Notes: generated by a model not told the origin, from the sequence alone. A stretch of 64,000 bases of DNA from Solirubrobacterales bacterium (GCA_036278095.1 DASULS010000008.1:7974-71973), one strand, 5' to 3'; shown: positions 5,545 through 52,324, counted from the stretch's first letter. Numbers and translations are program-made.

Positions 5545-5619
5545 GCGGTCCGGGTGACCCTCCCAAAACTCGCTCGCTTCGCTCGCTTTTGAGTGTTTTG
5601 GGAGGGTCACCCGGACCGC
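5545..5619. repeat. Palindromic element: 25-bp perfect inverted repeat, 25-nt loop
   Basis: 5545-5569 GCGGTCCGGGTGACCCTCCCAAAAC is the exact reverse complement of 5595-5619. The loop contains TCGCTCGC-TTCGCTCGC. Confidence 0.9.
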
Positions 5620-5638
5620 TACCTAGAATCGTGGCCCG

Positions 5639-7093
5639 ATGACGAGATTAGGCGACTTGGTCGCGGAGCTTCCGGGAGCACGTGTCGTCGGCGACACCTC
5701 TGTGGAGGTTGCTGATCTGGCTTATGACAGTCGCAAGGTGGAGCCTGGGACTTTGTTCTTCTGCGTGGTGGGGGAGAAGGTGGATGGGCATTCGTTTGGG
5801 GCGCGGGCGGTTGAGGAAGGGGCCGTGGCGCTGGTCGTCGAGCGGGAGCTGACGGAGCTGGGGGTGGCGCAGGTGGTGGTGTCCGATTCGCGGGCGGCGA
5901 TGGCGCCGATGGCGGCTCGGTTCTGGGGAGATCCGACGGCGAAGCTGCGGGTGGCGGGGGTGACCGGGACCAACGGGAAGACGACGACCGCGTATCTGAT
6001 CCGGGAGATCCTCGAGGCGGCGGACTTCAACTGCGGCCTGCTGGGGACGGTGAAGCAGGTCGTCGGCGGGGTCGAGAAGGAAGTGGTGCGGACGACGCCG
6101 GAGGCGATCGAGCTGCAGGCGACCTTCCGCCAGATGCTCGAGGGTGGCGACGAGGCCTGCGCGATGGAGGTCTCCTCGCACGCGATGACCCTGCACCGGG
6201 CCGACGCGATCCACTTCGAGGTCGCCCTCTTCACCAACCTCACCCAGGACCACCTCGACTTCCACGCCGACATGGAGGACTACTTCCGCGCCAAGCGCAA
6301 GCTGTTCGAGACCGGGCCGAAGACGGCGATCGTCAACGTCGACGACCCCTACGGCCGCCGCCTCGCCGAGGAGTTCGAGTGCGTCACCTTCTCCGCCGAG
6401 GGCGCCGAGGCCGACTACAGCGCCCGCGACGTCGAGTTCGACGCCGGCGGCGCCGGCTTCACCGTCGCCGACATGCGATTGCGCACCGGCCTGCCCGGCC
6501 ACTTCAACGTCGCCAACGCGCTCGGCGCCTTCGCCGCGGCGGAGGCGATGGGGGTGGGGGCGGAGATCGCCGCTGCCGGCCTCGCCAAGGCGGGGCGCGT
6601 GCCGGGCCGCTTCGAGCCGATCGACGAGGGCCAGGAGTTCACGGTCCTGGTCGACTACGCCCATACCCCCGACTCGCTGGAGAACGTGCTGCAGGCGGCG
6701 CGCCGCCTCACCAAGGGCCGGCTGATCTCCGTCTTCGGCGCCGGTGGCGACCGCGACCGCGACAAGCGGCCGAAGATGGGCCGGGCCGGCGCCGAGCTCT
6801 CCGACCTGGCCGTGATCACCTCCGACAACCCGCGCTCGGAGGACCCGGAGGCGATCGTCGCCGAAGTCGCCAGCGGGGCGGAGGGCGTCGAAGGCGTCGT
6901 GGAGCGGGAGATCGTCGTCGACCGCCGCGAGGCGATCGCCCTGGCGCTCGGTCGCGCCCGCCCCGGCGACACCGTGGTGATCGCCGGCAAGGGCCACGAG
7001 CAGGGGCAGGAGTTCGAGAACGGCCGCAAGGTCCCCTTCGACGACCGCGAGGTCGCCCGCGAGGAGCTCTGGAAGCTGGGCAGCCCGGCGTGA
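5639..7093 (+). CDS. murE: UDP-MurNAc-L-Ala-D-Glu:meso-diaminopimelate ligase
   Basis: P-loop GVTGTNGKTTT and the DNPR motif (ITSDNPRSEDP). Confidence 0.95.
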   Translation: MTRLGDLVAELPGARVVGDTSVEVADLAYDSRKVEPGTLFFCVVGEKVDGHSFGARAVEEGAVALVVERELTELGVAQVVVSDSRAAMAPMAARFWGDPTAKLRVAGVTGTNGKTTTAYLIREILEAADFNCGLLGTVKQVVGGVEKEVVRTTPEAIELQATFRQMLEGGDEACAMEVSSHAMTLHRADAIHFEVALFTNLTQDHLDFHADMEDYFRAKRKLFETGPKTAIVNVDDPYGRRLAEEFECVTFSAEGAEADYSARDVEFDAGGAGFTVADMRLRTGLPGHFNVANALGAFAAAEAMGVGAEIAAAGLAKAGRVPGRFEPIDEGQEFTVLVDYAHTPDSLENVLQAARRLTKGRLISVFGAGGDRDRDKRPKMGRAGAELSDLAVITSDNPRSEDPEAIVAEVASGAEGVEGVVEREIVVDRREAIALALGRARPGDTVVIAGKGHEQGQEFENGRKVPFDDREVAREELWKLGSPA

Positions 7094-17494: not shown

Positions 17495-17620
17495 GAAGCG
17501 AGGTTGAGGCTGGAAACCGCTCTAGCAAGCGGCTCTGAAAAGTCTCAAGTAAAGGGTGAGGGTGGGCAAACCCTCAACCCAAGGTTGAGAAATGCTGCCT
17601 GCACAATGCTTGGCGGCCGT

Positions 17621-18862: not shown

Positions 18863-18880
18863 GCGCGGGGGGCCGGCGGT

Positions 18881-18950
18881 AGGGCCCATCGTGGGTCCCT
18901 CCCGCCGCCGCTTCGCGGGAGTTCGTCGGGAGGGACCCACGATGGGCCCT
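18881..18950. repeat. Palindromic element: 24-bp perfect inverted repeat, 22-nt loop; likely dcw terminator
   Basis: 18881-18904 AGGGCCCATCGTGGGTCCCTCCCG is the exact reverse complement of 18927-18950. Confidence 0.9.
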
Positions 18951-18992
18951 TCGACACGGCTGCCCAGGGACGCGCTCGCATAGGCTCAGGGG

Positions 18993-35807: not shown

Positions 35808-35838
35808 CGGCGTACGCCGCCCGTATGCTGGCGGCGTC

Positions 35839-36936
35839 ATGACGAAGCCGCCTCGGATCACCGTCCTCGGGGTGGGCCTGATCGGGGGATCGATCGGGCT
35901 CGCCGCGCGGCGGCGCCTCGACGCCGAGGTGGTCGGCTACGGCCGCACCGCGGCGAACCTGGAGCGGGCGGTCGCGCTGGGGGCGCTCGACCGCGCCGCC
36001 GGCTCGCTCGCCGAGGCCTGCGAGGGCGCCGAGGTCGTCTTCTGCGCCGGCCCGGTGGCGGCGCTGCCGCAGCAGGCGCGCGAGGCGCTCGCGGCCTGCG
36101 GGCCCGAGGCGGTCGTCACCGACGTCGGCTCGACCAAGGGCGAGCTGGTGGCGGCGGTCGGCGACGACGAGCGCTTCATCGGCGGCCACCCGCTGGCGGG
36201 GGCGGAGACTGCCGGGGTCGAGAACGCCCGCGAGGACCTCTTCGAGGGCGCCCGCTGGTACCTGACCCCGACCGAGCGCTCCAGCGGCCTCCTCTACGAC
36301 CGCCTGCAGCGGCTGCTCTCTGCCCTGGGCGCGCGCCCCCAGGCGATCGACCCGGCCGGCCACGACCGCCTGATGGCGACGGTCAGCCACCTTCCCCACG
36401 TGCTCGCCAACGCGCTCGCCGCGGAGGCGGCGGAGTCGCTTACCCAGGGCTCCGAGCGGCTGCCCGACGTCGGCCCGAGCTTCCGCGACGCGACCCGCGT
36501 CGCCGGCTCCAACCCGGCGATCTGGGCCGACATCTTCGCCAGCAACCGCGAGGCGGTCGCCGCCTCGGTCGACTCGGTCGGGGCGCGGCTGCGCGAGGCG
36601 GCGGAGCTGATCCGCGCCGGTGACCTAGAGGCGCTCGCCGCCTGGCACGGGGCCGCCGGCGAGGCGCGCCGCCGCCTGCTCGAAGCCGAGTCGGAGGCGG
36701 GGCCGCTGCGCGAGCTGCGGATCGTCGTCGCCAACCAGCCGGGGACGATCGCCGAGCTGGCGCTGGCGCTGGGCGAGGCCGGCGTCAACATCGAGGACAT
36801 GGCGCTGCACCCGGCGCCCGACATGACCTCCGGCGCCGTCAGCCTCTGGGTCGCCGGCGACGAGGGCGCCGCCAGGGCGGCCGAGCTGGTGCGCGGTCTC
36901 GGCCACACCGTCACGCTGCTGGGCAGCGACGAATAG
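35839..36936 (+). CDS. tyrA: Prephenate dehydrogenase with C-terminal ACT domain
   Basis: ITVLGVGLIGGSIG NAD fold, GGHPLAG, and C-terminal LRIVVANQPGTIAELALALG (ACT-like). Confidence 0.85.
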   Translation: MTKPPRITVLGVGLIGGSIGLAARRRLDAEVVGYGRTAANLERAVALGALDRAAGSLAEACEGAEVVFCAGPVAALPQQAREALAACGPEAVVTDVGSTKGELVAAVGDDERFIGGHPLAGAETAGVENAREDLFEGARWYLTPTERSSGLLYDRLQRLLSALGARPQAIDPAGHDRLMATVSHLPHVLANALAAEAAESLTQGSERLPDVGPSFRDATRVAGSNPAIWADIFASNREAVAASVDSVGARLREAAELIRAGDLEALAAWHGAAGEARRRLLEAESEAGPLRELRIVVANQPGTIAELALALGEAGVNIEDMALHPAPDMTSGAVSLWVAGDEGAARAAELVRGLGHTVTLLGSDE

Positions 36937-36947
36937 GCTCGCGGGGA

Positions 36948-38240
36948 ATGACCCGCTTCGACCCCTCGAGACCCCTGCGCGGCGCGCTGCGGCCGCCGTC
37001 GGACAAGTCGATCTCCCACCGCGCGGCGCTGATCGCGGCGATGGGCGAAGGGGGGACGATGATCGAGGGCTACCTCGACGCCGCCGACACCCGCTCGACG
37101 CTGGCCGCGGTCGAGGCGCTCGGCGCCCGGGTGGAAGCCGGCGTGGACGGCTCGGTCTCCTCGCAGCTGCGGGTCCACGGCGTCGGCCTGCGCGGTGCCG
37201 AATCGGCCGACGTCGACGTCGGCAACGCCGGCACCCTGCTGCGGCTGCTGCCCGGCTGGCTGGCGGGGCAGGAGGGGGAGGACTGGGTCCTCGACGGCGA
37301 CGAGTCGATCCGCCGCCGCCCCGTCGACCGCATCGCCGTACCGCTGCGGCAGATGGGGGCGCGGTTGCGCTGCCGGGAGGATCGCCTGCCGCCGCTGGAG
37401 ATCGAAGGCGAGCCGCTGCGCGGGATCGCCTACGAGCTGCCGATCGCGAGCGCCCAGGTGAAGTCGTGCCTGCTCTTCGCCGGTTTGCTGGCCCACGGGG
37501 AGACGCGGGTGGTCGAGCCGCTGCCGAGCCGCGACCATACGGAGCGGATGCTCGCCGCCGCCGGCGCCTCGATCGCGCGCGAGGGCGACGCCGTCGTCGT
37601 CCAGCCCGCCGAGCGCCTGGAACCCGGCCCGATCACCGTCCCCGCCGACATCTCCTCGGCCGCCTTCTTCGTCGTCGCCACGCTTCTGGTCGGCGGCAGC
37701 GAGGTGGTGCTGGAGGAGGTCGGGGTCAACCCGACGCGGACGGGGTTGCTGGCGATCCTCGGGCGGATGGGCGCGGCGATCGAGGTCGAGGACGAGCGCG
37801 AGAGCAGCGGCGAGCCGGTCGCCTCGCTCCGCGTCCGCTCGGCGCCGCTGCGCGCCACCGAGGTCGGCGGCGCCGAGATCCCGCTGGCGATCGACGAGCT
37901 GCCGCTCGTCGCCCTCGCCGCCTGCTTCGCCGAGGGGACGACCGTGATCCGCGACGCCGAGGAGCTGAGGCGCAAGGAGTCCGACCGGATCGAGACCGTG
38001 ACCGCGGCGCTGTGCGCGCTCGGCGGCGCCGTCGAGTCGACCGCGGACGGGATGGTGGTCGAGGGGACCGGGGGTCTGCGCGGGGGCACGGTCGAGTCCC
38101 ACGGCGACCACCGGATCGCGATGCTCGGCGCCGTCGCCGGCCTTGCCTCGCGCGAGGGGGTCGAGGTGGTCGGGATGGACGCCGCGGCGGTCAGCTATCC
38201 CGGCTTCGAGGCCGACCTCGGCTCGCTGCTTAGGGCGTGA
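36948..38240 (+). CDS. aroA: 3-phosphoshikimate 1-carboxyvinyltransferase (EPSP synthase)
   Basis: PSDKSISHRA, VGNAGTLLRLL and LRRKESDRI motifs. Confidence 0.95.
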   Translation: MTRFDPSRPLRGALRPPSDKSISHRAALIAAMGEGGTMIEGYLDAADTRSTLAAVEALGARVEAGVDGSVSSQLRVHGVGLRGAESADVDVGNAGTLLRLLPGWLAGQEGEDWVLDGDESIRRRPVDRIAVPLRQMGARLRCREDRLPPLEIEGEPLRGIAYELPIASAQVKSCLLFAGLLAHGETRVVEPLPSRDHTERMLAAAGASIAREGDAVVVQPAERLEPGPITVPADISSAAFFVVATLLVGGSEVVLEEVGVNPTRTGLLAILGRMGAAIEVEDERESSGEPVASLRVRSAPLRATEVGGAEIPLAIDELPLVALAACFAEGTTVIRDAEELRRKESDRIETVTAALCALGGAVESTADGMVVEGTGGLRGGTVESHGDHRIAMLGAVAGLASREGVEVVGMDAAAVSYPGFEADLGSLLRA

Positions 38241-38241
38241 G

Positions 38242-39057
38242 GTGCGCGGCGCCGACCTCGAGGTGGAGCGCCTGGGGGAGGGGCCGCCGGTCCTCTTCGT
38301 CCCCGGCAGCGTCGTCGGAGCGGAGCTGACCTGGCGCCGCCAGCGCGCGCTCGCCGGGCGCTGGACGCTGATCTTCCCCAACCGGCCCGGCTTCGGCGCC
38401 AGTCCGCCGCTGCCGCGCAACGACTTCGAGGCCGAAGCGCCGCTGTTCGCCGAGCTGCTCGGCGACGGCGCCCACCTCGTCGGCCACTCCTACGGCGCGG
38501 TGATCGCCCTCTACGCGGCGGCGCTGCGCCCCGAGGCGGTGCTCTCGCTGACCGTCTCGGAGCCGGGCACCCTGCAGCTGGCGGGGACGCCCGAGGCGGC
38601 GGAGATGATCGCCAACGGCGAGCGTCTCTACGCGGCGGCCGACTCGATCGCGCCGCTCGACTTCGTCCGCATGTTCCGCTTCGGCGCCAACTCCGCCCGT
38701 GAGACGCCGAGCGAGCTGCCCGAGCCGCTGCGCCGCGGGGCCGAGCTGGCGATGCGCGAGCGCCCGCCCTGGGAGGGCGAGGTCCCGCTCGAGCGCCTCG
38801 CCGCGGCGGGCATCCCGGCGCTGGTCGTCTCCGGCGGCCACTCGCCGGTCTTCGAGGCCGTCTGCGACCGCCTCGCCGAGGCGCTGGGAGCGGAGCGGGA
38901 GACGATCGAAGGCAAGGGCCATAGCGTCCCCGAGACCGGCGACCCCTACAACCAACTCCTGAAGCGGTTCCTAGCCTCGCACGATCACGGCGCCGCCAGC
39001 GGAGCATCGTTTCCACCTTTGTCCTCGTTATGGCGAGGAAAAGGGTGGAAACGATGA
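38242..39057 (+). CDS. Alpha/beta hydrolase (Ser nucleophile GHSYG)
   Basis: GTG 38242, just after the aroA stop. The GHSYG elbow is present. The last 17 codons are encoded by the 55-nt hairpin module. Confidence 0.7.
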
Positions 39058-39058
39058 G
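39004..39058 (+). repeat. 55-nt hairpin module, copy 1 (ATG in loop)
   Basis: 51 of 55 nt identical to 42373-42427. Stem 39005-39027 pairs with 39034-39056. Loop TTATGG carries the ATG at 39030. Confidence 0.85.
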
Positions 39059-39713
39059 CAAATACGCTGCCGCCATGGTGATCGCGATCGACGGCCCGGC
39101 CGGGGCCGGCAAGTCCTCGGTGGCGCGCGCCGTCGCCGCCGAGCTCGGCTTCACCTATCTCGACTCGGGGGCGATGTACCGCTGCGTCGCCCTGGTGGCG
39201 CTGGAGCGGGGGATCGACCTCGACGACGGCAAGGCGCTGGGCGAGCTGGCCGAGGGGCTGGAGATCGGCTTCGACGGCCGCCGCGTCTTCATCGGCGAGC
39301 GCGAGGTAGGCGACGAGATCCGCACCCCCGCGGTCAGCGCCGCCGCGTCGCGGGTCTCGGTCCACCAGCGCGTGCGCGCGGCGATGGTCGCCCGCCAGCG
39401 GCAGCTGATCGCCGCCGGTCGCTACGTCGCCGAGGGCCGCGACATCGGCACCGCGGTCAGCCCCGAGGCGCCGCTGAAGGTCTTCCTCACCGCCTCCGAC
39501 GAGGAGCGGGCGCGCCGCCGCGCGGCGGAGACGGGCGAGCCGGTGGCGGAGGTGCTCGCCGCCCAGCAGCGCCGCGACGCCAGCGACACCGAGCGCGAGC
39601 ACGGCGCCCTGCGCGCCGCCGACGACGCGGTCGAGCTGGACACGACCGGGCTCTCGCTCTTGGAGGTCGTCGCTCGGGTGGTTTCCCTGGCCCGCGAACG
39701 GGGGCCCGCGTGA
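39054..39713 (+). CDS. cmk: Cytidylate kinase
   Basis: [14 protein letters not shown]-loop. ATG 39054 overlaps the hydrolase stop (ATGA). An in-frame alternative ATG at 39030 lies in the hairpin loop. Confidence 0.9.
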
Positions 39714-41026
39714 GCCTGCCCACCGTCGCCGTCGTCGGCTTCCCCAACGTCGGTAAGAGCACCCTCGTCAACCGGCTGGTCGGCGGCACCGAGGCGGTCA
39801 CCTCGCCCGAGCCCGGCGTCACCCGCGACCGCAAGCGGCTCGCCACCGAATGGAACGGAGTCGCCTTCGAGCTGGTCGACACCGGCGGCATCGACCTCGG
39901 CGACGAGGCCGAGCTGGCCCGCGACGTGCAGGCGCAGGCGCGGGTGGCGATCGCCGAAGCCGACGCGATCCTGCTGGTCGTCGACGGCCGCGCCGGGCTG
40001 CGTGGCGGCGACGCCGAGCTGGCGAAGACGCTGCGCGGCGGCGCGGTGCCGGTGATCGTCGTCGTCAACAAGGCCGACCGGCCGAACGACTACGGCATCG
40101 CCGCCGAGTTCCACGCGCTGGGGCTGGGCGAGCCGCTGGCGGTCTCCGCCACCCATGGGCTCGGCACCGGCGACCTGCTCGACGCGACCGTCGCCGCGCT
40201 CGGCGAGCGCGAGCCGCAGGCGGAGGCCGACGAGGCGGTCCGGGTCGCGGTGATCGGCCGCCCCAACGTCGGCAAGTCCTCGCTCGTCAACGCCTTCCTC
40301 GGCTCCGAGCGGGTGATCGTCTCCGACATCGCCGGCACCACTCGCGACGCGATCGACACCAGGCTCGAGGTCGACGGCCGCCCGGTCGTCCTCGTCGACA
40401 CGGCCGGCCTGCGCCGCCGCTCGAAGGTGGCCGGCACGGTCGACTACTACGCGCAGCTGCGCAGCGAACGGGCGGTCGAGCGAGCCGACGTGGCGATCGT
40501 CGTCTGCGACGCCTCCGAGGGGGTGACCTCCGAGGACCTGCGGGTGGCGGAGATGGCGATGAAGGCCGGTTGCGCCAGCCTGCTGGCGATGAACAAGTGG
40601 GACGTCACCGAGACCGACATCGACGATGCCCGCGCCCGGGTCGAGCGCAAACTGCGGCTGCGCCCGGCGGTGATCACGATCTCGGCGACCCGCGGGCGCA
40701 ACGTCAACACCCTGCTGCCGCGGGCGCTGGAACTTGCCGACCGGGCCGGGGAGCGGATCCCGACGCCGGAGCTGAACCGCTTCGTCAGCGACGTCGTCGC
40801 GAAGAACCCGCCGCCGGCCCGGCGCGGCCGCCGCCTCCGCCTCTTCTACGCGGCGCAGGTGGGAGAGCGGCCGCCGCGGATCGCGATCCAGGTCAACGAC
40901 CGCAAGCTGATCACCCGCGACTGGGCCTACCACCTGGAGAACCGGATGCGCGAGACCTATGGCCTGGAGGGGGTGCCGCTGGTGATCGACTTCGTCCCGC
41001 GCTCGGGCTACCGAGGGCGCGAGTGA
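39710..41026 (+). CDS. der: Ribosome-associated GTPase Der (EngA)
   Basis: Two GTPase domains: [13 protein letters not shown] and [17 protein letters not shown]. Confidence 0.95.
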
Positions 41027-41067
41027 CACCGGGCGTCTTCGGTCGATCTTCCTTTACTCTTCCGCCC

Positions 41068-42318
41068 ATGCCAACTTCCAAGCCGCTCGCCGAGGGCGAG
41101 TACCTCTTCACGTCGGAGTCAGTCACCGAGGGACACCCGGACAAGGTCGCCGACGCGATCTCCGACGGGGTGCTCGACGCGATCATGGCCGAAGACCCGG
41201 GCGGCCGGGTCGCCTGCGAGACCCTGGTCAACACTGGCATGGCGGTCGTCTCCGGTGAGATCTCCACCGACGTCCACCTCAACATCCCCGAGATCGTGCG
41301 CGAGACGGTGCGCGGGATCGGCTACGACCACGGCGACTACGGCTACCACTGCGACCACATCTCGGTCCTCACCTCGATCGACAAGCAGTCGCCCGACATC
41401 GCCCAGGGCGTCGACCGCGCTTACGAGACGCGGGTCGACCCCGCCGACGACGACGAGCTCGACGTCGCCGGCGCCGGCGACCAGGGGATGATGTTCGGCT
41501 ACGCCAGCGACGAGACCGAGGCGCTGATGCCGATGCCGATCCACCTCGCCCACCGGCTCGCAGAACGGCTGGCAGCGGTGCGCAAGGACGGCAGCCTTGA
41601 CTACCTCGGCCCTGACGGCAAGACCCAGGTCACCGTCCGCTACGCGTATGGTCGCCCCGTCTCGGTCGAGAAGCTGCTGATCTCGACCCAGCACGAAGAG
41701 GGAATCGACTCCCAGAGCCAGATCAAGCCGGAGCTATGGGAGGGCGTCGTGTTGCCGGTCCTGGAGGCCGAGGTCCCCGATCGCTTCGACGCAAACGCGC
41801 TTCAAGAGCAGTTCCTCGTCAACCCGACCGGCAAGTTCGTGATCGGCGGCCCGGTCGGCGACGCGGGTCTCACCGGCCGCAAGATCATCGTCGACACCTA
41901 CGGCGGCATGGCCCGCCACGGCGGCGGCGCCTTCTCCGGCAAGGACCCGTCCAAGGTCGACCGCTCAGCCGCATACGCCGCCCGCCACGTGGCGAAGAAC
42001 GTCGTCGCCGCCGGGCTGGCGCAGCGCTGCGAGGTCCAGGTCGCCTACGCGATCGGCGTCGCCCACCCGGTCTCGCTGATGGTCGAGACCTTCGGCACCG
42101 GCAAGCTGCCCGACTCGAAGATCTCGCAGCTGGTCGAAGCCGAGTTCGACATGCGCCCCGGCGCCTTCCGCGAGTACCTCGACCTCCATCGCCCGATCTT
42201 CCAGAAGACCGCCGCCTACGGCCACTTCGGCCGCGAGGACGACGACTTCACCTGGGAGCGCACCGACCGCGCCGACGCCCTCCGCACCGCCGCCGGCGCC
42301 GAAGCCGCCGCCGCGTAG
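41068..42318 (+). CDS. metK: S-adenosylmethionine synthetase
   Basis: [24 protein letters not shown] and [19 protein letters not shown] motifs. Confidence 0.97.
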
Positions 42319-42372
42319 TCCCGCAAAACGCGGCAGTAACTCAACCCCCTCCAAAGCGCAGGGGGAAGAGCT

Positions 42373-42427
42373 GCATCGTTTCCACCCTTGTCCTCGTTAT
42401 GGCGAGGAGAAAGGTGGAAACGAGGAG
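42373..42427 (+). repeat. 55-nt hairpin module, copy 2 (ATG in loop is the start of DUF559 paralogue 2)
   Basis: 51 of 55 nt identical to 39004-39058. Loop ATG at 42399. Confidence 0.85.
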
Positions 42428-43349
42428 TCGGTTGGCGTGGGAGCTGGCGGGAAGGCAGCATGGAGTGGTGGGGCGGGCGCAGCTGTTGGGGCTGGGATTT
42501 ACGAAGAGCGGGATCGAGCATCGGCTGAAGAAGGGACGGCTCCACCGGGTCTCCGACGGCGTCTACCTGGTGGGGTGGGCGCGGCTCACTCGCGAGCGCC
42601 GTTGGATGGCGGCGGTGCTTGCCTGCGGAGACGGGGCGATGCTCAGCCATCGCAGCGCCGCAGCGCTCTGGGGATTCGGCAAGGAGCGGAAGGGAGTGAT
42701 CGACGTCAGCGTTCGCCGTCATTGCAAGGTGCGGCGGGTGGGAATCCACGTGCGCGATCGTCCCGGTCTCCGGAACCGCGATGTCGGCACGCGCCTCGAC
42801 ATCCCCGTTACCCAGCCCGTCCGCACCTTCCTCGACATCGCGACGGAACTGCCCGACAACGAGGTCGAGCGGGCGGTCAACGCGGCGGACAAGTGCGACG
42901 TGATCGATCCGGACCGGCTACGCCGGGCGCTTGGGGATCATCCTGGTGAGCCTGGTATCCGCCGCCTCCGCCGCGTGCTCGACGAGCACACCTTCCGCCT
43001 CTCCGACGACGAACTGGAACTCCTCTTCCGGCCGATCGCTGCTGCCGCCGGCCTACCGACCCCGCTCACGAAACAGCGCGTCAACAAGTTCGAGGTCGAC
43101 TTCTTCTGGCCCGACCTCGCCCTCGTCGTCGAGACCGATGGCTGGCGCTACCACCGCACGCCCTCGGCCCAGACCCGCGACGCGCTCCGCTTCCAGCGCC
43201 ATACCGCCGCCGGACTGACGCCCCTGCGCTTCTCCCACTACCAGGTCAAGTACGAACCCCGCCACGTCCGCCAGATCCTCGAACAGACCGCGGCGAACTT
43301 ATTGAGCCGGCGGTTGAGCTTCGCCGAGCCCGTGTTCGCCGGCGGCTGA
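42399..43349 (+). CDS. AbiEi-like wHTH + DUF559 protein, paralogue 2
   Basis: QHGVVGRAQLLGLG, GRLHRVSDGVY, RWMAAVLACGDGAMLSHRSAAALWG and EVDFFWPDLALVVETDGWRYH blocks. Its 3' end overlaps the convergent PH-domain gene by 51 nt. Confidence 0.8.
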   Translation: MARRKVETRSRLAWELAGRQHGVVGRAQLLGLGFTKSGIEHRLKKGRLHRVSDGVYLVGWARLTRERRWMAAVLACGDGAMLSHRSAAALWGFGKERKGVIDVSVRRHCKVRRVGIHVRDRPGLRNRDVGTRLDIPVTQPVRTFLDIATELPDNEVERAVNAADKCDVIDPDRLRRALGDHPGEPGIRRLRRVLDEHTFRLSDDELELLFRPIAAAAGLPTPLTKQRVNKFEVDFFWPDLALVVETDGWRYHRTPSAQTRDALRFQRHTAAGLTPLRFSHYQVKYEPRHVRQILEQTAANLLSRRLSFAEPVFAGG

Positions 43350-43814
43350 GACGCCCGTCGCCCGGTCCACGGACTGGACGACGTCGCCCGGGTCGGCTAC
43401 CCCGGCGAAGACGAAGTTGTAGTCGTCGGTCGCGGCCGTGTCGAAGTCGACGTCGCCGATCTGCATCAGGCGCTGGTAGACGCTCTGGCGGTAGTTGACG
43501 TTCTGGACCCGCTCCAGGCGCGTCTCCTGGATCTCCCGCGAGATGATCCCGCGCTTGATGTTGAGGCGGTGGTTGGTGATCGTGTAGGTCGTCGCCACCC
43601 GTTTGACGAAGCCGACGAGGATCGTGATCGCGAGGACGACGAGGATCACCACGAAGGCGCTGCCGTTGCCGTCGACCAGCTTCGCGATCACGCCGAGGAT
43701 CACCGCGATCAGCAGCCCTTTGAGGTAGAAGCCGAGGATCGCGCGCCAGGAGGGGTGGCCCTGGAAGATCACCTGCTCTCCTGGCCTGAGGTTGAAGCTC
43801 ACGGGCGCCAGCAT
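43299..43814 (-). CDS. Membrane protein with bacterial PH (YdbS/YdbT-like) domain
   Basis: ATG 43814 is preceded by a GGGGGACGAGGG SD-like run. Two TM helices, then ATTYTITNHRLNIKRGIISRE. Confidence 0.7.
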   Translation of the reverse strand: MLAPVSFNLRPGEQVIFQGHPSWRAILGFYLKGLLIAVILGVIAKLVDGNGSAFVVILVVLAITILVGFVKRVATTYTITNHRLNIKRGIISREIQETRLERVQNVNYRQSVYQRLMQIGDVDFDTAATDDYNFVFAGVADPGDVVQSVDRATGVSAAGEHGLGEAQPPAQ

Positions 43815-43849
43815 AAGCCCTCGTCCCCCGGCACGCATAACCTCAGCCG

Positions 43850-46045
43850 GTGGCGATCCTCCGCGTCGAGCCGCTGACCACCGCCCGCGCTCTGCGTGGC
43901 CCCTTCGACTACCGCCGGCCGGAGGCGATGGCGGATCTCGGCGTCGGCAGCGTTGTCCGCGTCCCCTTCGGGCCGCGCCGCATCCTCGGCGTCGTCGTCG
44001 AGGTCGCCGAGGCCTCCGAGCTGCCGCCGGAGCGGCTCGCCGAGCCGCTTGAGGCGCTGGAGGCAGGGGCGACGCCGGAGCTGGTCCGGCTCGGCCTCTG
44101 GGTCGCCCGCGAGTATTGCTCGACCCCCTCGCGCGGCCTGCAGCTGGTGCTGCCGCCGGGGACCGGGACCGGCAGCAAAGGCCGCACGGTGCGGGCGAAG
44201 ACCGAGCTGCGCGCCACGATCCTCCCGGCCGGGGAGGCTGCCCTGGCCGGCGGCGAGCGGCTGGGGACGAAACAGCGGGCGGCGCTCGACGCGCTCCGCT
44301 CGGGCGAGATGTCGGCCGGCGAGCTGGCGACCGCGGTCGGCGCCGACCACCAGACCCTGCGCCGGCTCGAGGGGCGCGGCCTCATCGCCACCCGCACCGC
44401 GACCGTCCGCCGCATCCCCGGCGAGCCGGGCCTCTCGGGAGCGGCGGAGCGCCCCCAGTTCCTGCCCGAGCAGGAGGAGGCGGTCGCGGCGCTTGTCGCC
44501 GCCCTCGACGGCGAGGCCGGCTCCCCGCGTCAGCTGCTCCTCCACGGCGTCACCGGCTCCGGCAAGACCGAGGTCTACCTGGCTGCCGTCGAGGCGGCGC
44601 TGGAGCGGGGGAAGGGGGCGATCGTCCTCGTCCCCGAGATCGGCCTCGCCCCGCAGGCGGTCGCCCGCTTCCGCGCCCGCCTCGGCGACCGCTTCGCCGT
44701 GCTGCACTCGGCCCTCTCCGCCGGCGAGCGCTACGACGAGTGGCGGCGCCTGCGCGACGGCGAGGCGAGCGTCTGCGTCGGCCCCCGCTCCGCCGTCTTC
44801 GCCCCCGTCCGCGACCTCGGCCTGATCGTGATCGACGAGGAGCACGACCCCTCCTACAAGCAGGAGGGCGACCCCACCTACGACGCCCGCGCCGTCGCCC
44901 GCAAGCGCGCCGCCGAGAGCGGCGCCGTCCTCGTCGCCGGGACCGCGACGCCGCGCCCGGAGAGCTGGCTGGAGCTGCCGCGCCTGGAGCTGCCGCGCCG
45001 GGTCGACGGCCGCCGGATGCCGCCGGTCCACCTGGTCGACATGCGCGAGGCCGACCCGCGCAGCGGGCCGGTCCACGCCGAGACCTGGGAGGCGCTGGAG
45101 GAGGTCCGCGCCGCCGGCGCCAAGGCGATCGTGATGATCAACCGCCGCGGCTTCGCCCCCTGGCTCACCTGCCGCTCCTGCGGCCACCACTGGAGCTGCC
45201 CCAACTGCGACGTCTCGCTGATCGTCCACCGCCACAGCGGCCGCCTCGTCTGCCACCACTGCGCCCACGCCGAGCCGCAGCCGCGCGCCTGCCCCGAGTG
45301 TGGCTCGACCACGCTCGCCCAGGCCGGTGCCGGGACCGAGCGGATCGAGCGGCTGCTGGCCGAGCGCCTCGACCCGATGCCGGTCCTGCGCCTCGACTCC
45401 GACACCGCCGCCGAGCGCGGCGCCCACGCCCGCATCCTCGCCCGCTTCGACGAGACCCCGAGCGCCGTCCTCGTCGGCACCCAGATGGTCGCCAAGGGCC
45501 ACGACTTCCCCGAGGTGACGCTGAGCGCGATCCTCGACGCCGACGCGACCCTGCGCTTCCCCGACTTCCGCGCCGAGGAGCGGACCTTCGCGATGGTCGC
45601 CCAGCTCGCCGGCCGCTCGGGACGCGGCGAGGCAGGGGGAGAGGTGATCGTCCAGACCCTGGCCCCGAACGCCTCCAGCATCGAGCACGCCGCCCGCCAC
45701 GACTCCGCCGGCTTCCTCGAGGTCGAGCTGGGGCGCCGCGAGGCGCTGCGCTACCCGCCCTTCTCGCACCTGACCCGGATCAACTTCGCCGCCGAGCAGG
45801 AGGCGAGGCTCGAAGACGCCGCCGCGGGCGTGGCCGGCGAGCTGCGGCGGGCGCTGCCGCCGGAGTCGGAGCTGCTGGGGCCGGCGCCGATGTTCCGGGT
45901 GCGGAACCGGTATCGGCGGCGGGTCATGATCAAGGCGCAGGATCGTGAGGGGGCGATTTTGGCCGTTCGCGAGGTGGTGGAACGTCGGGTTGCGGATCGG
46001 TCGCTCAAGGACGTGGCGATCGGGGTGGACGTGGATCCGCAGTAG
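43850..46045 (+). CDS. priA: Primosomal protein N' (PriA helicase)
   Basis: GTG start. Walker A GVTGSGKTEVY, DEEHD, and the Cys-rich zinc region CRSCGHHWSCPNC...CHHC...CPECGS. Confidence 0.95.
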   Translation: MAILRVEPLTTARALRGPFDYRRPEAMADLGVGSVVRVPFGPRRILGVVVEVAEASELPPERLAEPLEALEAGATPELVRLGLWVAREYCSTPSRGLQLVLPPGTGTGSKGRTVRAKTELRATILPAGEAALAGGERLGTKQRAALDALRSGEMSAGELATAVGADHQTLRRLEGRGLIATRTATVRRIPGEPGLSGAAERPQFLPEQEEAVAALVAALDGEAGSPRQLLLHGVTGSGKTEVYLAAVEAALERGKGAIVLVPEIGLAPQAVARFRARLGDRFAVLHSALSAGERYDEWRRLRDGEASVCVGPRSAVFAPVRDLGLIVIDEEHDPSYKQEGDPTYDARAVARKRAAESGAVLVAGTATPRPESWLELPRLELPRRVDGRRMPPVHLVDMREADPRSGPVHAETWEALEEVRAAGAKAIVMINRRGFAPWLTCRSCGHHWSCPNCDVSLIVHRHSGRLVCHHCAHAEPQPRACPECGSTTLAQAGAGTERIERLLAERLDPMPVLRLDSDTAAERGAHARILARFDETPSAVLVGTQMVAKGHDFPEVTLSAILDADATLRFPDFRAEERTFAMVAQLAGRSGRGEAGGEVIVQTLAPNASSIEHAARHDSAGFLEVELGRREALRYPPFSHLTRINFAAEQEARLEDAAAGVAGELRRALPPESELLGPAPMFRVRNRYRRRVMIKAQDREGAILAVREVVERRVADRSLKDVAIGVDVDPQ

Positions 46046-46055
46046 CGCAGGGTGG

Positions 46056-46127
46056 GGAGGGGTCGGGTACCCCTCTCAACACGCGCTTCGCGCTGGGAGT
46101 GTTTTGAGAGAGGTACCCGACCCCTCC
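46056..46127. repeat. Palindromic element: 24-nt arms with 23 matches, 24-nt loop
   Basis: GGAGGGGTCGGGTACCCCTCTCAA pairs with TTGAGAGAGGTACCCGACCCCTCC. Its right half resembles the right half of the 5545-5619 element. Confidence 0.9.
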
Positions 46128-46129
46128 TA

Positions 46130-46309
46130 CCGGAGCCGCTTTGCGAGCGCGTCGGCCAGGGCAGCGGTGGCTGGGGGGTGGCTGGTGAGGTAGAGGTTGG
46201 ACTCGGAAGTCGCCCTCCGCTGGGCCTTGCATAGAAGCCCAAGGCGAGCGGCAAGCGTCGCGGCGTCGTTCCAGTGGCGATGGCGATTCTGGGTCGTGGC
46301 ACGGTTACT
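46130..46309 (-). pseudogene. Start-less 60-codon open frame, possible remnant of a DUF559-type gene tail (weak)
   Basis: Hand translation gives SNRATTQNRHRHWNDAATLAARLG...LYLTSHPPATAALADALAKRLR*. The tail resembles ...AAAIADAIASRIS* of paralogue 1. There is no ATG/GTG/TTG in frame, and the stop overlaps the palindrome arm. Confidence 0.2.
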
Positions 46310-46357
46310 TCACGCAGGAAGTATCAGAACGGAGGAGACACTTAGACTCAGCTTTCG

Positions 46358-46996
46358 ATGAGCGACGAGGTCAAAACCGAGGAGCGCGGCGAGGAGGAGC
46401 GAGCGCTCGAAGTCGAGCTGATCGAGCGCCGGGAAGCGGCGCTTGCCCACGTGGTCAAGTTCGGCGACCCGGTGCTGAAGAGCAAGGCCTCGCCCGTCTC
46501 CAACTTCGGCCCCGAGCTGCGGGCGGAGGTCGAGCGGATGATCGAGATCATGCGCGACGGCCTCGGCGTCGGCCTGGCGGCGACCCAGCTCGGCGTCCTG
46601 CGGCGCCTGCTCGTCTTCCAGGCCGGCCCCGACGCCGAGCCGACCGCGCTGGTCAACCCCGAGGTCGAGTGGTTCTCGGAGGAGACCGCGGTCGCCGAGG
46701 AGGGCTGCCTCAGCCTGCCGCGGGTCTCGATGGACGTCGAGCGGCCGCTGTACGCACGCTTCAGCGGCCGCGACGCCGAGGGCGAGCCGATCGTGATCGA
46801 GGCCGCCGGACTGGAGGCGCGGGTCCTCCAGCACGAGCTCGACCACCTCGACGGCGTCCTGATCCTCGACCGGACCACGCGCGAGCAGCGCAAGGGGGCG
46901 CTGCGGGCGCTGCGCGAAGGGGGCAGCTACAGCCCCTCCTCGGAGGAGGAGATCGCCGAGGAGGGCGAGCTCCGCGAGCCGCGCACCGACGCGTGA
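46358..46996 (+). CDS. def: Peptide deformylase (with acidic N- and C-terminal extensions)
   Basis: GVGLAATQ, EGCLS and HELDH motifs. Confidence 0.9.
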   Translation: MSDEVKTEERGEEERALEVELIERREAALAHVVKFGDPVLKSKASPVSNFGPELRAEVERMIEIMRDGLGVGLAATQLGVLRRLLVFQAGPDAEPTALVNPEVEWFSEETAVAEEGCLSLPRVSMDVERPLYARFSGRDAEGEPIVIEAAGLEARVLQHELDHLDGVLILDRTTREQRKGALRALREGGSYSPSSEEEIAEEGELREPRTDA

Positions 46997-47898
46997 GGAC
47001 CGTCTACCTCGGCACCTCCGAGTTCGCCGCCACCGTCCTGCGCCGGCTGGCCGGCTCACCGCACCGTCCCGCCCTCGTCGTCACCCCGCCCGACCGGCGC
47101 CAGGGGCGCGGCCGCAAGGTCTCGCCGCCGCCCGCAGCGCTTGCGGCGAAGGAGCTGGGGCTCGACCTGCTGCAGGCGGAGAACGTCAACGACGAGGTGG
47201 CGCTGGAGCGGATCCGCGCCGCCGAGCCGGAGGCGGTCCTCGTCTGCGCCTTCGGCCAGCTGATCCGCGAGCCGCTGCTCTCCGAGTTCCCGATGCTGAA
47301 CGTCCATCCCTCGCTGCTGCCGCGCTGGCGCGGGGCGGCGCCGATCGAGCGGGCGATCATGGCCCGTGACGAGACCACCGGCGTCTGCGTGATGAAGCTG
47401 ACCGAGGGCCTCGACTCCGGCCCGGTCGCCCTGCGCGAGGAGCTGTCGCTCGGCCCAGATGAGGATTTCGCCTCGCTCTCCTCGCGCCTGGCCGAGGTTG
47501 GCGGCGAGCTGCTCGTCCGCGCCCTCGATCTGCTCGCCACGGGAGCGCTCGAGCTCGCCGAGCAGAGCGAGGAGGGCGTCACCTACGCGGAGAAGATCGA
47601 GCCGGGCGAGCGCCGCCTCGACCCCTCCCGGCCGGCGGCCGAGCTGGCAGCCAAGGTCCGCGCCCTCAATCCGCACGTCGGCACCTACCTGGAGCTCGGC
47701 GAGGACGAGCGCCTCGGCGTGCGCCGGGCGAAAGCCGTCGAGGCGGAGGTCGAGCCCGGCCGCCTCGTCGCCCAGGACGGCGCGCTCCTACTCGGCTGCG
47801 GCGAGGGAGCGCTGCGGCTGGAGGCGGTGCAGCCGCCCGGGGGCAAGCCGATGCCCGCCGACGCCTACCTGCGCGGCCACCCGCTGCCGGAGCGATGA
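46993..47898 (+). CDS. fmt: Methionyl-tRNA formyltransferase
   Basis: GTGA overlap with def. NVHPSLLPRWRGAAPIERAI motif. Confidence 0.9.
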   Translation: MRTVYLGTSEFAATVLRRLAGSPHRPALVVTPPDRRQGRGRKVSPPPAALAAKELGLDLLQAENVNDEVALERIRAAEPEAVLVCAFGQLIREPLLSEFPMLNVHPSLLPRWRGAAPIERAIMARDETTGVCVMKLTEGLDSGPVALREELSLGPDEDFASLSSRLAEVGGELLVRALDLLATGALELAEQSEEGVTYAEKIEPGERRLDPSRPAAELAAKVRALNPHVGTYLELGEDERLGVRRAKAVEAEVEPGRLVAQDGALLLGCGEGALRLEAVQPPGGKPMPADAYLRGHPLPER

Positions 47899-50316: not shown

Positions 50317-50395
50317 GAGGGGTCGGGAGTGTCTCGCCAGACACTCAACCCCGAGCCATAGCGAGGGGTGTCTGGCGAGGCACTCCCGACCCCTC
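50317..50395. repeat. Palindromic element: 28-nt arms (27 Watson-Crick pairs plus one G-T), 23-nt loop, between convergent rpe and antiporter genes
   Basis: GAGGGGTCGGGAGTGTCTCGCCAGACAC pairs with GTGTCTGGCGAGGCACTCCCGACCCCTC. Confidence 0.9.
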
Positions 50396-50397
50396 CC

Positions 50398-52104
50398 TCA
50401 ACCACGCGCAATCAGCGCCCCCGTGACCTCCTGCCACCAAGCCCGCTCAGCCGCATCCACATCAGGCCGCTGCACCCGCCCCTCGCACCAGTCGGCCAAG
50501 CTCCGCCGCCCCCCGATCGCGATCACGCCAGCGCCGGTGACGGCAAAGCGACCGTCGGCGAGGGCAACGAGGTAAGCGCCCCTCTCGGTGCGGCTGCGCA
50601 TCACGCGGACGATCGGGATCCCGTCGATCTCCTCGCCCAGCTCGCCGTCGTCGCGAACGGGCCGCACCGTGAAGACCTGCGAGGCGGCACGCCGCGGCAG
50701 CGGCGGCGGCGCGGCTTTGCCGATCGGGCCGCTCGCCCAGCGCTTGGTCAGCGCCTCGACTTCGTCGCGCAGCTCGCTGCGGACGAGGATGTGGAGCTCG
50801 TCGCCCTCGCGCAGCTCGGTCGAGCCGCGCGGCGGCAGCGCGGCGCCGTCGCGGACGATCACGTTGACCAGCGCCTCCCGCGGCAGCTCCAGCTCGCGCA
50901 CCGGGTGCCCGGCGGCGGCCGCCCCTGGCGGCAGCCGGTAGGCGATCACGTCGCCGCCCATGCGGCGGATCCGCCCCGACTCGAGCAGCCGCCGCGGCAG
51001 CGCCGGCTCGTCGGTGGTGAGGCCGAGCCTTCCCGCCAGCGGCTCGAAGCTCGCCCCCTGGACCAGGGTCGAGGTGACGACGACGAAGAAGACGATCGCG
51101 AAGAGCACGCTGCTCTCTTTGATCCCGGCGACGACCGGGAAGGTGGCGAGCCAGATCGGCGTCGCCCCGCGCAGCCCGGCCCAGCCGAGCATCATCCGCT
51201 CCCGCACGTTCAGCTGGGCCAGCGCCGTGGCGACGAAGGTCGCGACCGGCCGGGCGAGGAGGATCAGCACCGCCGAGAGGGCGAGGGCGTCGAGCGCGAC
51301 GTCGTTGAGGCTGGCGGGCGAGACCAGCAGCCCGAGCAGGATGAAGAGCGAGATCTGGGCGACCCAGCCAAGCCCCTGGTGGAAGGCGACGACGGTGCGC
51401 TGGGCGTGGATCCGGGCCGAGCCGAGCGCGAGCGAGGTCAGGTAGACGGCGAGGAAGCCGGAGCCGTGGGCGACCTCCGCCAGCCCGTAGGCGAGGCCGG
51501 CGATCGCCAGGGTGGCGACCGGGTAGATGCCGTCGTTCGGCAGCTGCGTGCGCTCGAGGGCGACCACGGCCAGCCGCCCCAGGGCGACCCCGATCGCCAC
51601 CCCCAGGCCCAGTTTCAGCGCCAGCAGGCCGGCCATGTCGGCGAAGCCGTAACCGGGTTGCTGGATCCATTCGATGAAGCCGATCACCAGCAGCAGCGCG
51701 ACCGGGTCGTTCATCCCCGACTCGCCCTCGAGCGAGCGGGCCAGCCGCTTCTCCAGGGTCGAGCGGCGCAGAACGGCGAAGATCGCGGCCGAGTCGGTGG
51801 CGGCGATCGCGGCGCCGACCAGCATCCCTTCCAGGGTGCTGAGGCCGAAGAGGAACTTCGCCGCGAAGCCGGCGATCACCGCCGTGATCGCGGTCCCGAT
51901 CGTCGCCAGCGAGGCGGCGGTGCCGAGCACCGGCCGGATCTCCGACCAGCCGGCGGTGAGCCCGCCCTCGAAGAGGATCAGGACCAGGGCGATCGTCCCC
52001 AGCGTCCGCGCCAGCTCGGTGTCGTTGAAGTCGATGCCGCCGACGCCTTCCGAGCCGGCGAGCATCCCCAGCGCGAGGAAGATCAGCAGCCCGGGCACCC
52101 GCAT
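50398..52104 (-). CDS. CPA1/NhaP-type cation:proton antiporter with C-terminal RCK_C (TrkA-C) domain
   Basis: Polytopic Na_H-exchanger-like region, then ELELPREALVNVIVRDGAALPPRGSTELREGDELHILV. The first canonical start is ATG 52104, but TM1-like sequence continues upstream. Confidence 0.85.
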   Translation of the reverse strand: MRVPGLLIFLALGMLAGSEGVGGIDFNDTELARTLGTIALVLILFEGGLTAGWSEIRPVLGTAASLATIGTAITAVIAGFAAKFLFGLSTLEGMLVGAAIAATDSAAIFAVLRRSTLEKRLARSLEGESGMNDPVALLLVIGFIEWIQQPGYGFADMAGLLALKLGLGVAIGVALGRLAVVALERTQLPNDGIYPVATLAIAGLAYGLAEVAHGSGFLAVYLTSLALGSARIHAQRTVVAFHQGLGWVAQISLFILLGLLVSPASLNDVALDALALSAVLILLARPVATFVATALAQLNVRERMMLGWAGLRGATPIWLATFPVVAGIKESSVLFAIVFFVVVTSTLVQGASFEPLAGRLGLTTDEPALPRRLLESGRIRRMGGDVIAYRLPPGAAAAGHPVRELELPREALVNVIVRDGAALPPRGSTELREGDELHILVRSELRDEVEALTKRWASGPIGKAAPPPLPRRAASQVFTVRPVRDDGELGEEIDGIPIVRVMRSRTERGAYLVALADGRFAVTGAGVIAIGGRRSLADWCEGRVQRPDVDAAERAWWQEVTGALIARG

Positions 52105-52221
52105 CCGGTCGGCGATCAGCGCTCCGGCGATCCCCGCGGCGAGGAGGACCCCGGCGATCAGGATCAGATGGGCGTCATGGGCACCGATCGGGCGACCCTA
52201 GACAAGAAGGTCGTCAGAGGG

Positions 52222-52324
52222 GGAGGGGTGGGTGCCCCTCTGCCGGAGACCGTACGTCTTAGAAGGGACCATCGGTGTCATCGGCTTGACCCAAAGCCTC
52301 CGTCAGAGGGGCACCCACCCCTCC
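52222..52324. repeat. Pair of inverted mini-hairpins (21-bp perfect inverted repeat, 61-nt spacer)
   Basis: GGAGGGGTGGGTGCCCCTCTG 52222-52242 is the reverse complement of 52304-52324. Each arm is itself GAGGGG-N6-CCCCTC. Confidence 0.85.

Follow-up and report, generated by a model that had tools for sequence, protein, structure and literature searches.

Conserved cores within rewritten arms: dispersed palindromes of Solirubrobacterales as candidate modular hairpin cassettes at gene 3' ends

Where do long, nearly perfect palindromes scattered between the genes of a bacterial chromosome come from, and what keeps their arms complementary? This question is raised by a 64,000-nucleotide stretch of DNA from a Solirubrobacterales bacterium (GCA_036278095.1, DASULS010000008.1:7974-71973; hereinafter, the window), in which a preliminary description recognized a dispersed family of GC-rich palindromes with GGAGGG...CCCTCC ends and likened them to repetitive extragenic palindromes (REP) and bacterial interspersed mosaic elements (BIME). 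To our knowledge, repeats of this type, including the hairpin-forming REP doublets known as REPINs, are well studied in Proteobacteria but essentially undescribed in Thermoleophilia, an abundant group of uncultured soil actinobacteria. On balance, we favour a different view, namely, that the palindromes make up a lineage-specific superfamily of modular hairpin cassettes that resemble REPINs and miniature inverted-repeat transposable elements (MITEs) and double as transcript 3'-end hairpins lacking a U-tract, without being bona fide REP or BIME elements.

The palindromes themselves are real. All nine (eight intergenic and one, at 58978, inside a gene) were recovered where they had been reported, by a repeat finder and by a separate palindrome scan, with arms of 20-29 bp that contain 0-2 mismatches and are 93-100% complementary. 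Stems of at least 20 bp with at most one mismatch number 9 in the window and 0 in 30 dinucleotide-preserving shuffles of it; lowering the minimum to 18 bp gives a mean of 0.27 in the shuffles. The GAGGG or CCCTC motif is found in the 5' arm of 9 of the 9 elements against the 16% expected from shuffled arms (maximum 56% in 500 shuffles) and in the arms of 49% of the elements in relatives, against 12% expected; within the 5' arm, the distance from the CCCTC to the inner end is usually 1-4 nt. The longer common head, GAGGG(G)TCGGG, is present at 31054, 46057 and 50317. In contrast, the proposal that each palindrome consists of two inverted mini-hairpin units had to be narrowed: the arms at 31053, 46056 and 52222 do form mini-hairpins (z of -2.5 to -3.0 against shuffled arms) whereas those of the other six elements do not (z of -1.2 to +0.5), and with only 3 of the 9 window arms and ~40% of the arms of one of the families delineated below (family B) complying, this build is not a universal rule. 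Likewise, the hairpins described as copies within or touching coding sequences, at 14716, 21848, 39004, 42373 and 58978, all exist but the motif is present only in the last of these; the other four lack GGAGGG/CCCTCC and belong to other small repeat families.

So what do the palindromes have in common? At orthologous junctions, which were read in 160 related loci from a comparison set of about 400 (labelled L001 and so on), it is the centre of each element that recurs from genome to genome. The nearest relatives are uncultured Solirubrobacterales metagenome-assembled genomes (MAGs), with best amino-acid identities of 89% for PriA and 91% for TrpS. Judged by their cores, the palindromes constitute not one repeat family, as originally supposed, but several (A, A2/I, B, C, D and E), and what had been taken for a variable linker between two repeat units is the conserved, family-defining part, with the arms as the variable part. 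The cores are asymmetric and 13-70 nt long, in hairpins with stems of 20-30 bp and loops of 11-61 nt. Family C, represented in the window at 31053, has the apical loop AACAGCGGGGAGG and is present at the scpB-rluB junction of ~60% of the relatives; family D (28545), with CGGGCGGATACTCAAA, a variable inner hairpin and TTGTCCGRGC, is found between a major facilitator superfamily (MFS) gene and trpS in about 32 relatives; and family A (18881), with CCGCTTCGCGGGAGTT, occupies the ftsZ-gcvT junction in some of them. Family E, with the loop TACTTGCAGGTGG, is located at the junction between rluB and a DUF559 gene (31826; the hairpin at 58978 is similar). Two further families are multi-copy and dispersed: family B (RCCGTYGCGCAGCTG, about 35 nt, GAGCCT), to which the diverged element at 52222 belongs, and family I, which is defined by the CTCGCTATGGCTCG loop with a GTTGA bulge and represented at 50317 on the minus strand, with variants at 5545 and 46056. 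Most cores have CCCTC at their 5' boundary and GAGGG at their 3' boundary, which is the reason why this motif stood out in the first place.

The arms that enclose these cores are rewritten from genome to genome and remain paired. In the ~75-nt family C hairpin at scpB-rluB, the stem is rewritten in every genome, and RNAalifold analysis of 26 orthologues yields double compensatory changes in 22 of 24 pairs, with about one G·U pair. In family B, double changes affect 19 of 29 pairs (50 copies), one pair column being composed of CG12/GC12/AU12/UA11; the arms, with a median length of 29 bp, show ~1.4% mismatch in their variable part, and G·T is not more common there than A·C. The information profile assigns little information to the outer arms, two copies located 1 kb apart in L267 combine near-identical cores with unlike arms, and 111 metagenome copies of family I display the same pattern of conserved core and variable arms. 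Families A, B and C have in common a recurrent C·T mismatch (GCC/GTC) a few base pairs away from the core. By alignment-based counts, the class of pairs with only one side changed, that is, wobble intermediates, is almost empty, and transversion swaps are common. An excess of G·U pairs, initially considered as a sign of RNA-level selection, was discarded: the first count reflected an artefact of minimum free energy fold extension, and unbiased counts show no excess over A·C.

The contrast between arms that differ among loci and are nearly perfect inside each locus extends from the window to the relatives. One interpretation originally offered for it, recent generation of the palindromes, does not hold: orthologues at scpB-rluB, MFS-trpS and ftsZ-gcvT persist across ~30 species-level relatives, with arms rewritten yet perfect, so that the perfection of the arms, as judged from these comparisons, is maintained over time rather than young. 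The strict pairing, the symmetric indel and the flipped loops described below are, taken jointly, not expected of RNA-level compensatory evolution alone and would indicate arm-to-arm templating in DNA.

How widespread are these elements? Families B, I and C are indeed dispersed, multi-copy and extragenic. A scan of the GTDB genome set with the family B core pattern gave more than 118 stretches, several per genome and on both strands, and all the matches listed come from Solirubrobacterales, Thermoleophilia or unclassified actinobacterial MAGs; in IMG/VR, where phage carriage was looked for, this core was not found. The family I core pattern matched at least 120 stretches in soil metagenomes. 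Family C copies are found at many junctions in both orientations, although the independent loci are too few for a conclusion on orientation. Stems of at least 20 bp occur at a density of 9 per 64 kb in the window against 5.1 per 64 kb in the trpS regions of relatives and 2.5 per 64 kb in the most distant quartile. A control scan with the arms GGGTGCCCCTC and GAGGGGCACCC separated by 3-33 nt retrieved, from Streptomyces and other genera, simple hairpins with loops of 3-9 nt, whereas the Solirubrobacterales matches contain family C cores of 26-29 nt, in both orientations and at many loci; an arm motif unique to the lineage is thereby rejected, the short-loop version being common elsewhere. Some copies are joined into larger structures. 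An 800-nt composite nested palindrome in L204 (4000-4800) combines a pair of inverted family B elements with GTGGTTCC hairpins and further units; it recurs in L161, L194, L265 and L274 and in at least 3 copies in the MAG CAWEOH01, with housekeeping genes alongside.

Furthermore, the occupancy of junctions varies between relatives, as is the case at priA-def, scpB-rluB, ftsZ-gcvT, MFS-trpS and downstream of rluB. At priA-def, most relatives have a spacer of 20-90 nt without a hairpin, a family B element is present in L001 and just one arm in L004; at ftsZ-gcvT, relatives carry family A, B, I, another type or nothing; and at empty scpB-rluB sites, the scpB stop and the rluB start overlap (GTGA). 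Downstream of rluB, the family E hairpin along with the DUF559 gene (~1.1 kb) is absent in many relatives, and in L082, L085, L086 and L093 the family E loop at this junction has the opposite orientation. At MFS-trpS, the core has been swapped: five genomes with 90-94% nucleotide identity in trpS agree in their flanks and in their arms, GCCGGGACGGGG(G)TGCCCCTC, which enclose the 50-nt family D core in L119, L121 and L114 and an unrelated 27-nt inverted C-like core in L122 and L129; the latter two have an additional G in the 5' arm and, to match it, an additional C in the 3' arm, a symmetric 1-bp indel. The preliminary description held that orthologous conservation at the same junctions in distant relatives, with no copy-number variation and no motif beyond that of GC-rich terminators, would speak against a mobile family. 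Cores and positions are indeed orthologous for families C, D and A, but copy number and occupancy vary and the motif exceeds that of generic terminators.

These observations could be taken to mean that the palindromes are a novel kind of mobile or self-maintaining DNA, distinct both from MITEs and from REP elements with their REP-associated tyrosine transposases (RAYTs), in which cores are inserted or exchanged at the CCCTC/GAGGG apex boundary and arms are continually re-templated from one another, which would account for the strict pairing, the symmetric indels and the flipped loops. We consider this rather unlikely; the process might be driven by a dedicated structure-specific enzyme recognizing the C·T mismatch or the bulge, for which the Vsr-like DUF559 endonucleases would be candidates. 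The inner hairpin of family D is interrupted by insertions of 3.4 kb and 1.3 kb at L082:~9900, L108:8739 and L118:8853, and the first part of the L118 insert resembles the 3' half of a tRNA-fMet; insertions seem to favour the apex of this hairpin, an apparent hot spot. Yet another family, denoted H, is found outside the window, with arms ..CCCGGTAGGGGT and a 72-74-nt core TCCGCTTAACTTTTTCG..CGAAAAAGTACAAGACGCTCC, at several junctions, scpB-rluB among them, and in either orientation (L102:5587, L103:2434, L105:5757, L114:6259, L131:6415, L135:9857, L138:12311, L141:1233 and L157:12354).

Could the elements simply be terminators? They begin 0-35 nt past a stop codon in the window (7-34 nt for the plus-strand stops), with a median of ~4 nt for family B, and are strongly co-oriented with the gene immediately upstream: 86 of the 98 resolvable family B copies (86:12), 67 of 85 family I copies (67:18) in an independent data set, and 6 of the 7 orientable window elements, the exception being 52222. 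Inverted pairs 200-700 nt apart are either the elements of two convergent genes or flank ordinary genes (hisF-like, ferritin-like, nadC-like). Canonical intrinsic terminators, with stems of 5-14 bp, loops of 3-8 nt and a U-tract, can be dismissed given stems of 20-30 bp, loops of 11-61 nt and the lack of a T-tract after any window element; a consensus terminator scan of 28000-47000 flagged none of the elements, its yield being a single site in these 19 kb where 4.6 would be expected. The same 19 kb yielded no sigma-70 consensus promoter, and none of the elements qualifies as one. The hexamers TAGAAT, TAGGCT, TAGTCT and TAGACT (5624-5629, ~18980, 28646-28651 and ~46344, respectively) are located 6-10 nt before the starts of murE, gcvT, trpS and def and are conserved in relatives, several elements ending a few nucleotides ahead of them. 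Placed in this manner, TAGNCT/TAGAAT hexamers presumably reflect the arrangement of leaderless-type actinobacterial promoters, which suggests that they mark such promoters here.

A broader version of the terminator explanation, in which the palindromes are ordinary, immobile, lineage-specific terminators or 3'-end hairpins that evolve in place for stem stability, with the motif following from GC composition, would account for sites right past stops and ahead of promoter-like hexamers, for the retention of structure and not of arm sequence, and for the identical arm with 3-9 nt loops that is widespread in Streptomyces and other genera. Moreover, structured 3' ends without a U-tract are well documented in Streptomyces: in S. 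clavuligerus, Term-seq identified 353 of 535 highly structured transcript 3' ends as lacking one (PMC8269248). Nevertheless, we find this explanation unlikely because long asymmetric cores are common to more than 100 non-orthologous loci; one junction holds A, B, I or nothing in different genomes and a core is exchanged within identical arms; elements are inserted between overlapping, translationally coupled genes and, in one case, in frame inside a gene; stems of 25-30 bp far exceed what termination needs; and GAGGG/CCCTC is enriched four- to six-fold over composition. Short GAGGG..CCCTC hairpins do exist as well, such as GAGGGTGGGCAAACCCTC at 17558-17575, upstream of ftsZ, with similar ones in L126, L145 and L159.

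The conservation of the cores brings up another possibility, that they are functional RNAs, either cis-regulatory elements of 3' or 5' untranslated regions (UTRs) or small RNAs derived from 3'-UTRs, with the stem as a scaffold; under this scenario, ribosomes or Shine-Dalgarno (SD) regions would be the targets of the SD-like family C loop, GGGGAGG, or of the complementary CCUCC. In family I, the loop, the GTTGA bulge and a covarying N1N2 pair, in family C, the invariant loop, and in family D, which is always upstream of trpS, the conserved internal loops with purine-purine mismatches are compatible with this idea, as is the strong co-orientation with the upstream gene. It is, however, quite improbable, considering that family D is replaced by an unrelated inverted core at the same site in L122 and L129, that the C and E cores occur in both orientations, and that the stems contain almost no G·U; in addition, a search of Rfam 15 gave no match at gathering thresholds and, up to an E-value of 5, only generic miRNA-precursor hairpin noise. 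Alternatively, the elements might act as DNA, the cruciforms or single-strand hairpins being sites of protein binding, topological control or recombination, or landing sites of mobile DNA. Strict Watson-Crick arms, the symmetric indel, the inversion of loops at fixed sites, the insertions of 1.3-3.4 kb exactly within the family D inner hairpin in three genomes and the composite 800-nt nested palindromes all fit such a role. We nonetheless regard it as very doubtful: a symmetric structure leaves the 79-88% co-orientation of the cores and the tight spacing from stop codons unexplained, and no binding protein or recombinase has been identified.

Each of these explanations, terminators, functional RNAs and DNA sites, as well as the REP/RAYT alternative taken up at the end, explains part of the data and fails on specific results. 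Under the favoured view, a G-rich/C-rich scaffold stem of 20-30 bp, usually closed by CCCTC/GAGGG, carries inside it an asymmetric family core of 13-70 nt. In the transcript, it would form a U-tract-less 3'-end hairpin, in keeping with the Term-seq data from S. clavuligerus, that either terminates transcription, as an I-shaped terminator, or blocks 3'-5' exonucleases, and the conserved loop or bulge could be a binding or processing site. As DNA, the cassettes would behave as non-autonomous mobile or convertible units, spread and remodelled by a templated process. Existing hairpins could be invaded at the CCCTC/GAGGG boundary, through insertion or ectopic conversion, and copying from arm to arm, for instance through template switching in replication, would keep the arms perfectly complementary. 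The perfect stem also brings the stop codon and the next start together at its base, perhaps the reason why insertions between overlapping genes such as scpB and rluB are tolerated.

Several considerations weigh against this hypothesis. No mobilising enzyme has been identified, and no strain-level pair of filled and empty sites was found (an exact 24-mer from the rluB start had no match in metagenomes). Families A and D are each confined to a single junction in the sampled loci, and instead of being mobile they could represent functional RNAs tied to one locus. Simple hairpins of Streptomyces and other actinobacteria share the arm, so that the scaffold as such is generic. The 3'-end role is deduced from position, and with only ~8% of genes estimated to carry a hairpin, the elements cannot be the general terminator. 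Finally, stems that adhere so closely to Watson-Crick rules are unlikely to be shaped solely by selection at the RNA level.

The settings of the individual elements can now be considered. The window is core chromosome with 70% G+C and, by frame analysis of G+C content at third codon positions, includes the dcw cluster (a penicillin-binding protein (PBP)/ftsI-like gene, murE and ftsZ) as well as gcvT, trpS, scpB, rluB, cmk, metK, priA, def, rpe, rpmB and three DUF559 genes. The first element, 5545-5619 on the plus strand, is I-like, with arms GCGGTCCGGGTGACCCTCCCAAAAC and GTTTTGGGAGGGTCACCCGGACCGC and the core CTCGCTCGCTTCGCTCGC-TTTTGA-GTGT, similar to the family I layout of ..ACAC, CTCGC..GCTCG, TTGA and GTGT.. 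in succession; it begins 10 nt past the stop (5535) of the PBP/ftsI-like gene and ends 4 nt before the TAGAAT that precedes the murE ATG at 5639. The family A element, 18879-18952 (plus strand), with its GCC/GTC C·T mismatch, is located 19 nt beyond the ftsZ stop (18862) and upstream of gcvT (TAGGCT, GTG at 18993); the same core within unlike arms is found at ftsZ-gcvT in L110, L126, L156 and L149, in two copies in the latter. In the family D element, 28545-28639 (plus strand), an outer stem closed by CCCTCG/CGAGGG surrounds AGCGGGCGGATACTCAAA and TTGTCCGAGC, which are conserved around the variable inner hairpin; it starts 34 nt past the MFS gene stop (28511), and its 3' end is 6 nt before the TAGTCT of trpS (ATG at 28661). 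The family C element, 31048-31126 (plus strand), with the apical loop ..AAAAGTCGTGGAGGCTCC.., fills the gap from the scpB stop (31046) to the rluB GTG (31126). The family E element, 31826-31886, which has no assigned orientation, has the loop CCACCTGCAAGTA between CCCCTCC and GGAGGGG and lies between the convergent rluB (stop 31818) and DUF559 (stop 31911) genes.

The remaining elements include two more of the family I type. The A2 variant at 46056-46127 (plus strand), 11 nt past the priA stop (46045), has the core ACAC-GCGCTTCGCGC-TGGGA-GTGT, each arm being a GAGGGG-N7-CCCCTC mini-hairpin; further along the priA-def spacer, 46128-46357 holds what remains (~230 nt) of a minus-strand gene, the intact form of which (~0.9 kb) occupies this place in L002, L003, L005 and L009. 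The family I element proper, 50317-50395 on the minus strand, whose reverse-complemented core CCCTCGCTATGGCTCGGGGTTGA is identical to that at L097:4799, follows the stop (50398) of a Na+/H+ exchanger gene on that strand by 2 nt and lies 22 nt past the rpe stop (50295). The diverged family B element, 52220-52326 (plus strand), matches 49 aligned family B copies in its arms and core ends (..CCCCTCTGCCGGAGACCGT ... AGCCTCCGTCAGAGGGG..) and differs in the centre of the core; it has an arm identical to one in L213 and adjoins the stop of a minus-strand gene (52325-53716), which makes it one of the minority of anti-oriented copies. The E-like hairpin at 58976-59032, likewise unoriented, has the loop CTCAGCAATTA between CCCTCCTC and GAGGAGGG and is in frame within a DUF559 open reading frame (ORF; 58616-59497), where it corresponds to amino acids 121-139. 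This ORF is full length (293 amino acids), 37% identical to both paralogues along its whole extent and ~12 amino acids longer at the hairpin, which, on sequence grounds, is an intragenic palindrome insertion comparable to the Rickettsia palindromic elements (RPE) and in-gene REP copies.

The three genes for Vsr-like DUF559 endonucleases in the 64 kb, 31911-32918 (minus strand), 42399-43349 and 58616-59497 (both plus strand), each touch a hairpin: one contains it in frame, one appears to start in its loop and one has it downstream. Among 40 sampled DUF559 regions, the stop is closely followed by a palindrome of 18 bp or more in 22, mostly at one orthologous locus (including L081-L134 around 13100), and the association remains anecdotal, only a lead. 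The hairpins at 39004-39057 and 42373-42425 are nearly identical (CATCGTTTCCACC..GGTGGAAACGATG), and orthologues of the first precede cmk in L091, L093 and L130. The loop of the second contains an ATG (42399) that is in frame with the DUF559 gene at 42465-43349 and restores N-terminal residues of the paralogues; the gene appears to start there. A 97-nt tRNA-Arg(gcg) that ARAGORN calls nearby, at 42265-42361 on the minus strand, overlapping the end of metK, is probably false given that Rfam shows no tRNA there at any threshold used. The hairpin at 21849-21887, GTGGTTCCTT..AAGGAACCAC, represents a separate dispersed family (17 copies in the sampled loci, at several junctions) with conserved arms and a variable centre, a REP-like pattern; it overlaps the end of gene 20498-21907, just ahead of the SD and start of the next gene.

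What do the palindromes offer beyond this lineage? They invert the usual logic of repeats, with a conserved centre, arms that are free to change yet perfectly matched, and exchange of cores in a persistent scaffold, and they make a testable bacterial system for the creation and upkeep of long perfect palindromes. In terms of annotation, the elements flag gene 3' ends in genomes with hardly any canonical terminators, may be misread as miRNA-like or other RNA matches, and explain gaps between otherwise overlapping genes as well as the in-frame insertion in the DUF559 gene.

How, then, do these elements compare with known systems? The REP/BIME/REPIN repeats and their RAYT transposases have been characterized in Proteobacteria (PMC2817692, PMC3116915, PMC3337134, PMC3733652), and the resemblance is considerable: the elements are extragenic, multi-copy and lineage-restricted, form a hairpin of two inverted arms and a spacer, ~100 nt in length, are located at gene 3' ends and inside operons, and include occasional in-frame intragenic copies and composite arrays. 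There are differences as well. A REP/BIME unit of 20-40 nt is highly conserved among the copies in a genome whereas here the arms are hypervariable and the core is conserved, that is, the reverse; the REP end tag, GTAG or CGTC, has no fixed counterpart; several core families share one scaffold and their cores are swappable; and the host belongs to Actinomycetota (Thermoleophilia). The REP/BIME reading of the preliminary description holds for the build of two inverted arms with a spacer and the length of ~70-110 nt but not for the sequence of the arms or a fixed GTAG, and no RAYT turned up in the sampled DNA.

Could the palindromes still be true REPINs, mobilised by a single-copy RAYT, an IS200/IS605-like Y1 transposase (IS, insertion sequence), encoded elsewhere in the genome? 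Their clade restriction, REPIN-like hairpins of ~70-110 nt and mini-hairpins in some of the arms would agree with this, and the recurrent C·T mismatch could be a recognition feature, irregular bases being known in IS200/IS605 hairpins. GTAG occurs within 22 nt upstream of 42 of 126 family B copies against a 13.5% baseline of stop contexts, a 2.5-fold excess, and REP copies in frame inside genes are on record (PMC3733652). We consider this origin very unlikely all the same. Arms differ even within one genome while spacers are conserved; GTAG accompanies only 33% of family B and is absent at 5 of the 8 window elements; the GTC of the C·T mismatch recurs inside the 3' arm, not as an end tag; no RAYT-sized ORF was found between inverted pairs or beside composite arrays; and Y1 probes had no tblastn match in 3.76 Mb around ~240 elements, which is weak evidence, the probes being approximate IS200/IS608 sequences.

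The second point of comparison is provided by MITE-like palindromic repeats that are co-transcribed with their neighbours, such as the Correia elements of Neisseria, the enterobacterial ERIC/IRU (enterobacterial repetitive intergenic consensus/intergenic repeat unit) and the RPE of Rickettsia. The present elements are similar in their size of 70-150 nt, long terminal inverted repeats, insertion beside or within genes, co-transcription and possible role in termination or processing; RPE and other in-gene repeats, including in-frame REP copies, are covered in PMC3733652. Terminal repeats of MITEs are conserved and match a parent IS whereas here conservation is lowest in the terminal arms and limited to the centre. 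No parent IS was seen for these elements, nor is there a clear target-site duplication, TGAGG being repeated at some scpB-rluB sites only. I-shaped terminators are similar in that a perfect GC-rich hairpin directly follows the stop without a T-tract, and the arms GGGTGCCCCTC/GAGGGGCACCC are present in Streptomyces hairpins as well; the mycobacterial TRIT hairpin motif is a related 3'-end type that lacks the U-tract. In the present case, however, the stems are two to three times longer, the loops span 13-70 nt with family-specific sequence instead of 3-8 nt, and the cores are dispersed, multi-copy and exchanged, with variable occupancy. The maintenance of the arms, finally, has its closest analogue in the correction of quasipalindromes by replication template switching and in arm-to-arm gene conversion, which are known as a mutational mechanism rather than as a system that maintains a family of repeats. 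By analogy, such template switching or arm conversion would account for the strict complementarity, the compensated transversions, the symmetric indels and the loop inversions of the modular hairpin cassettes.

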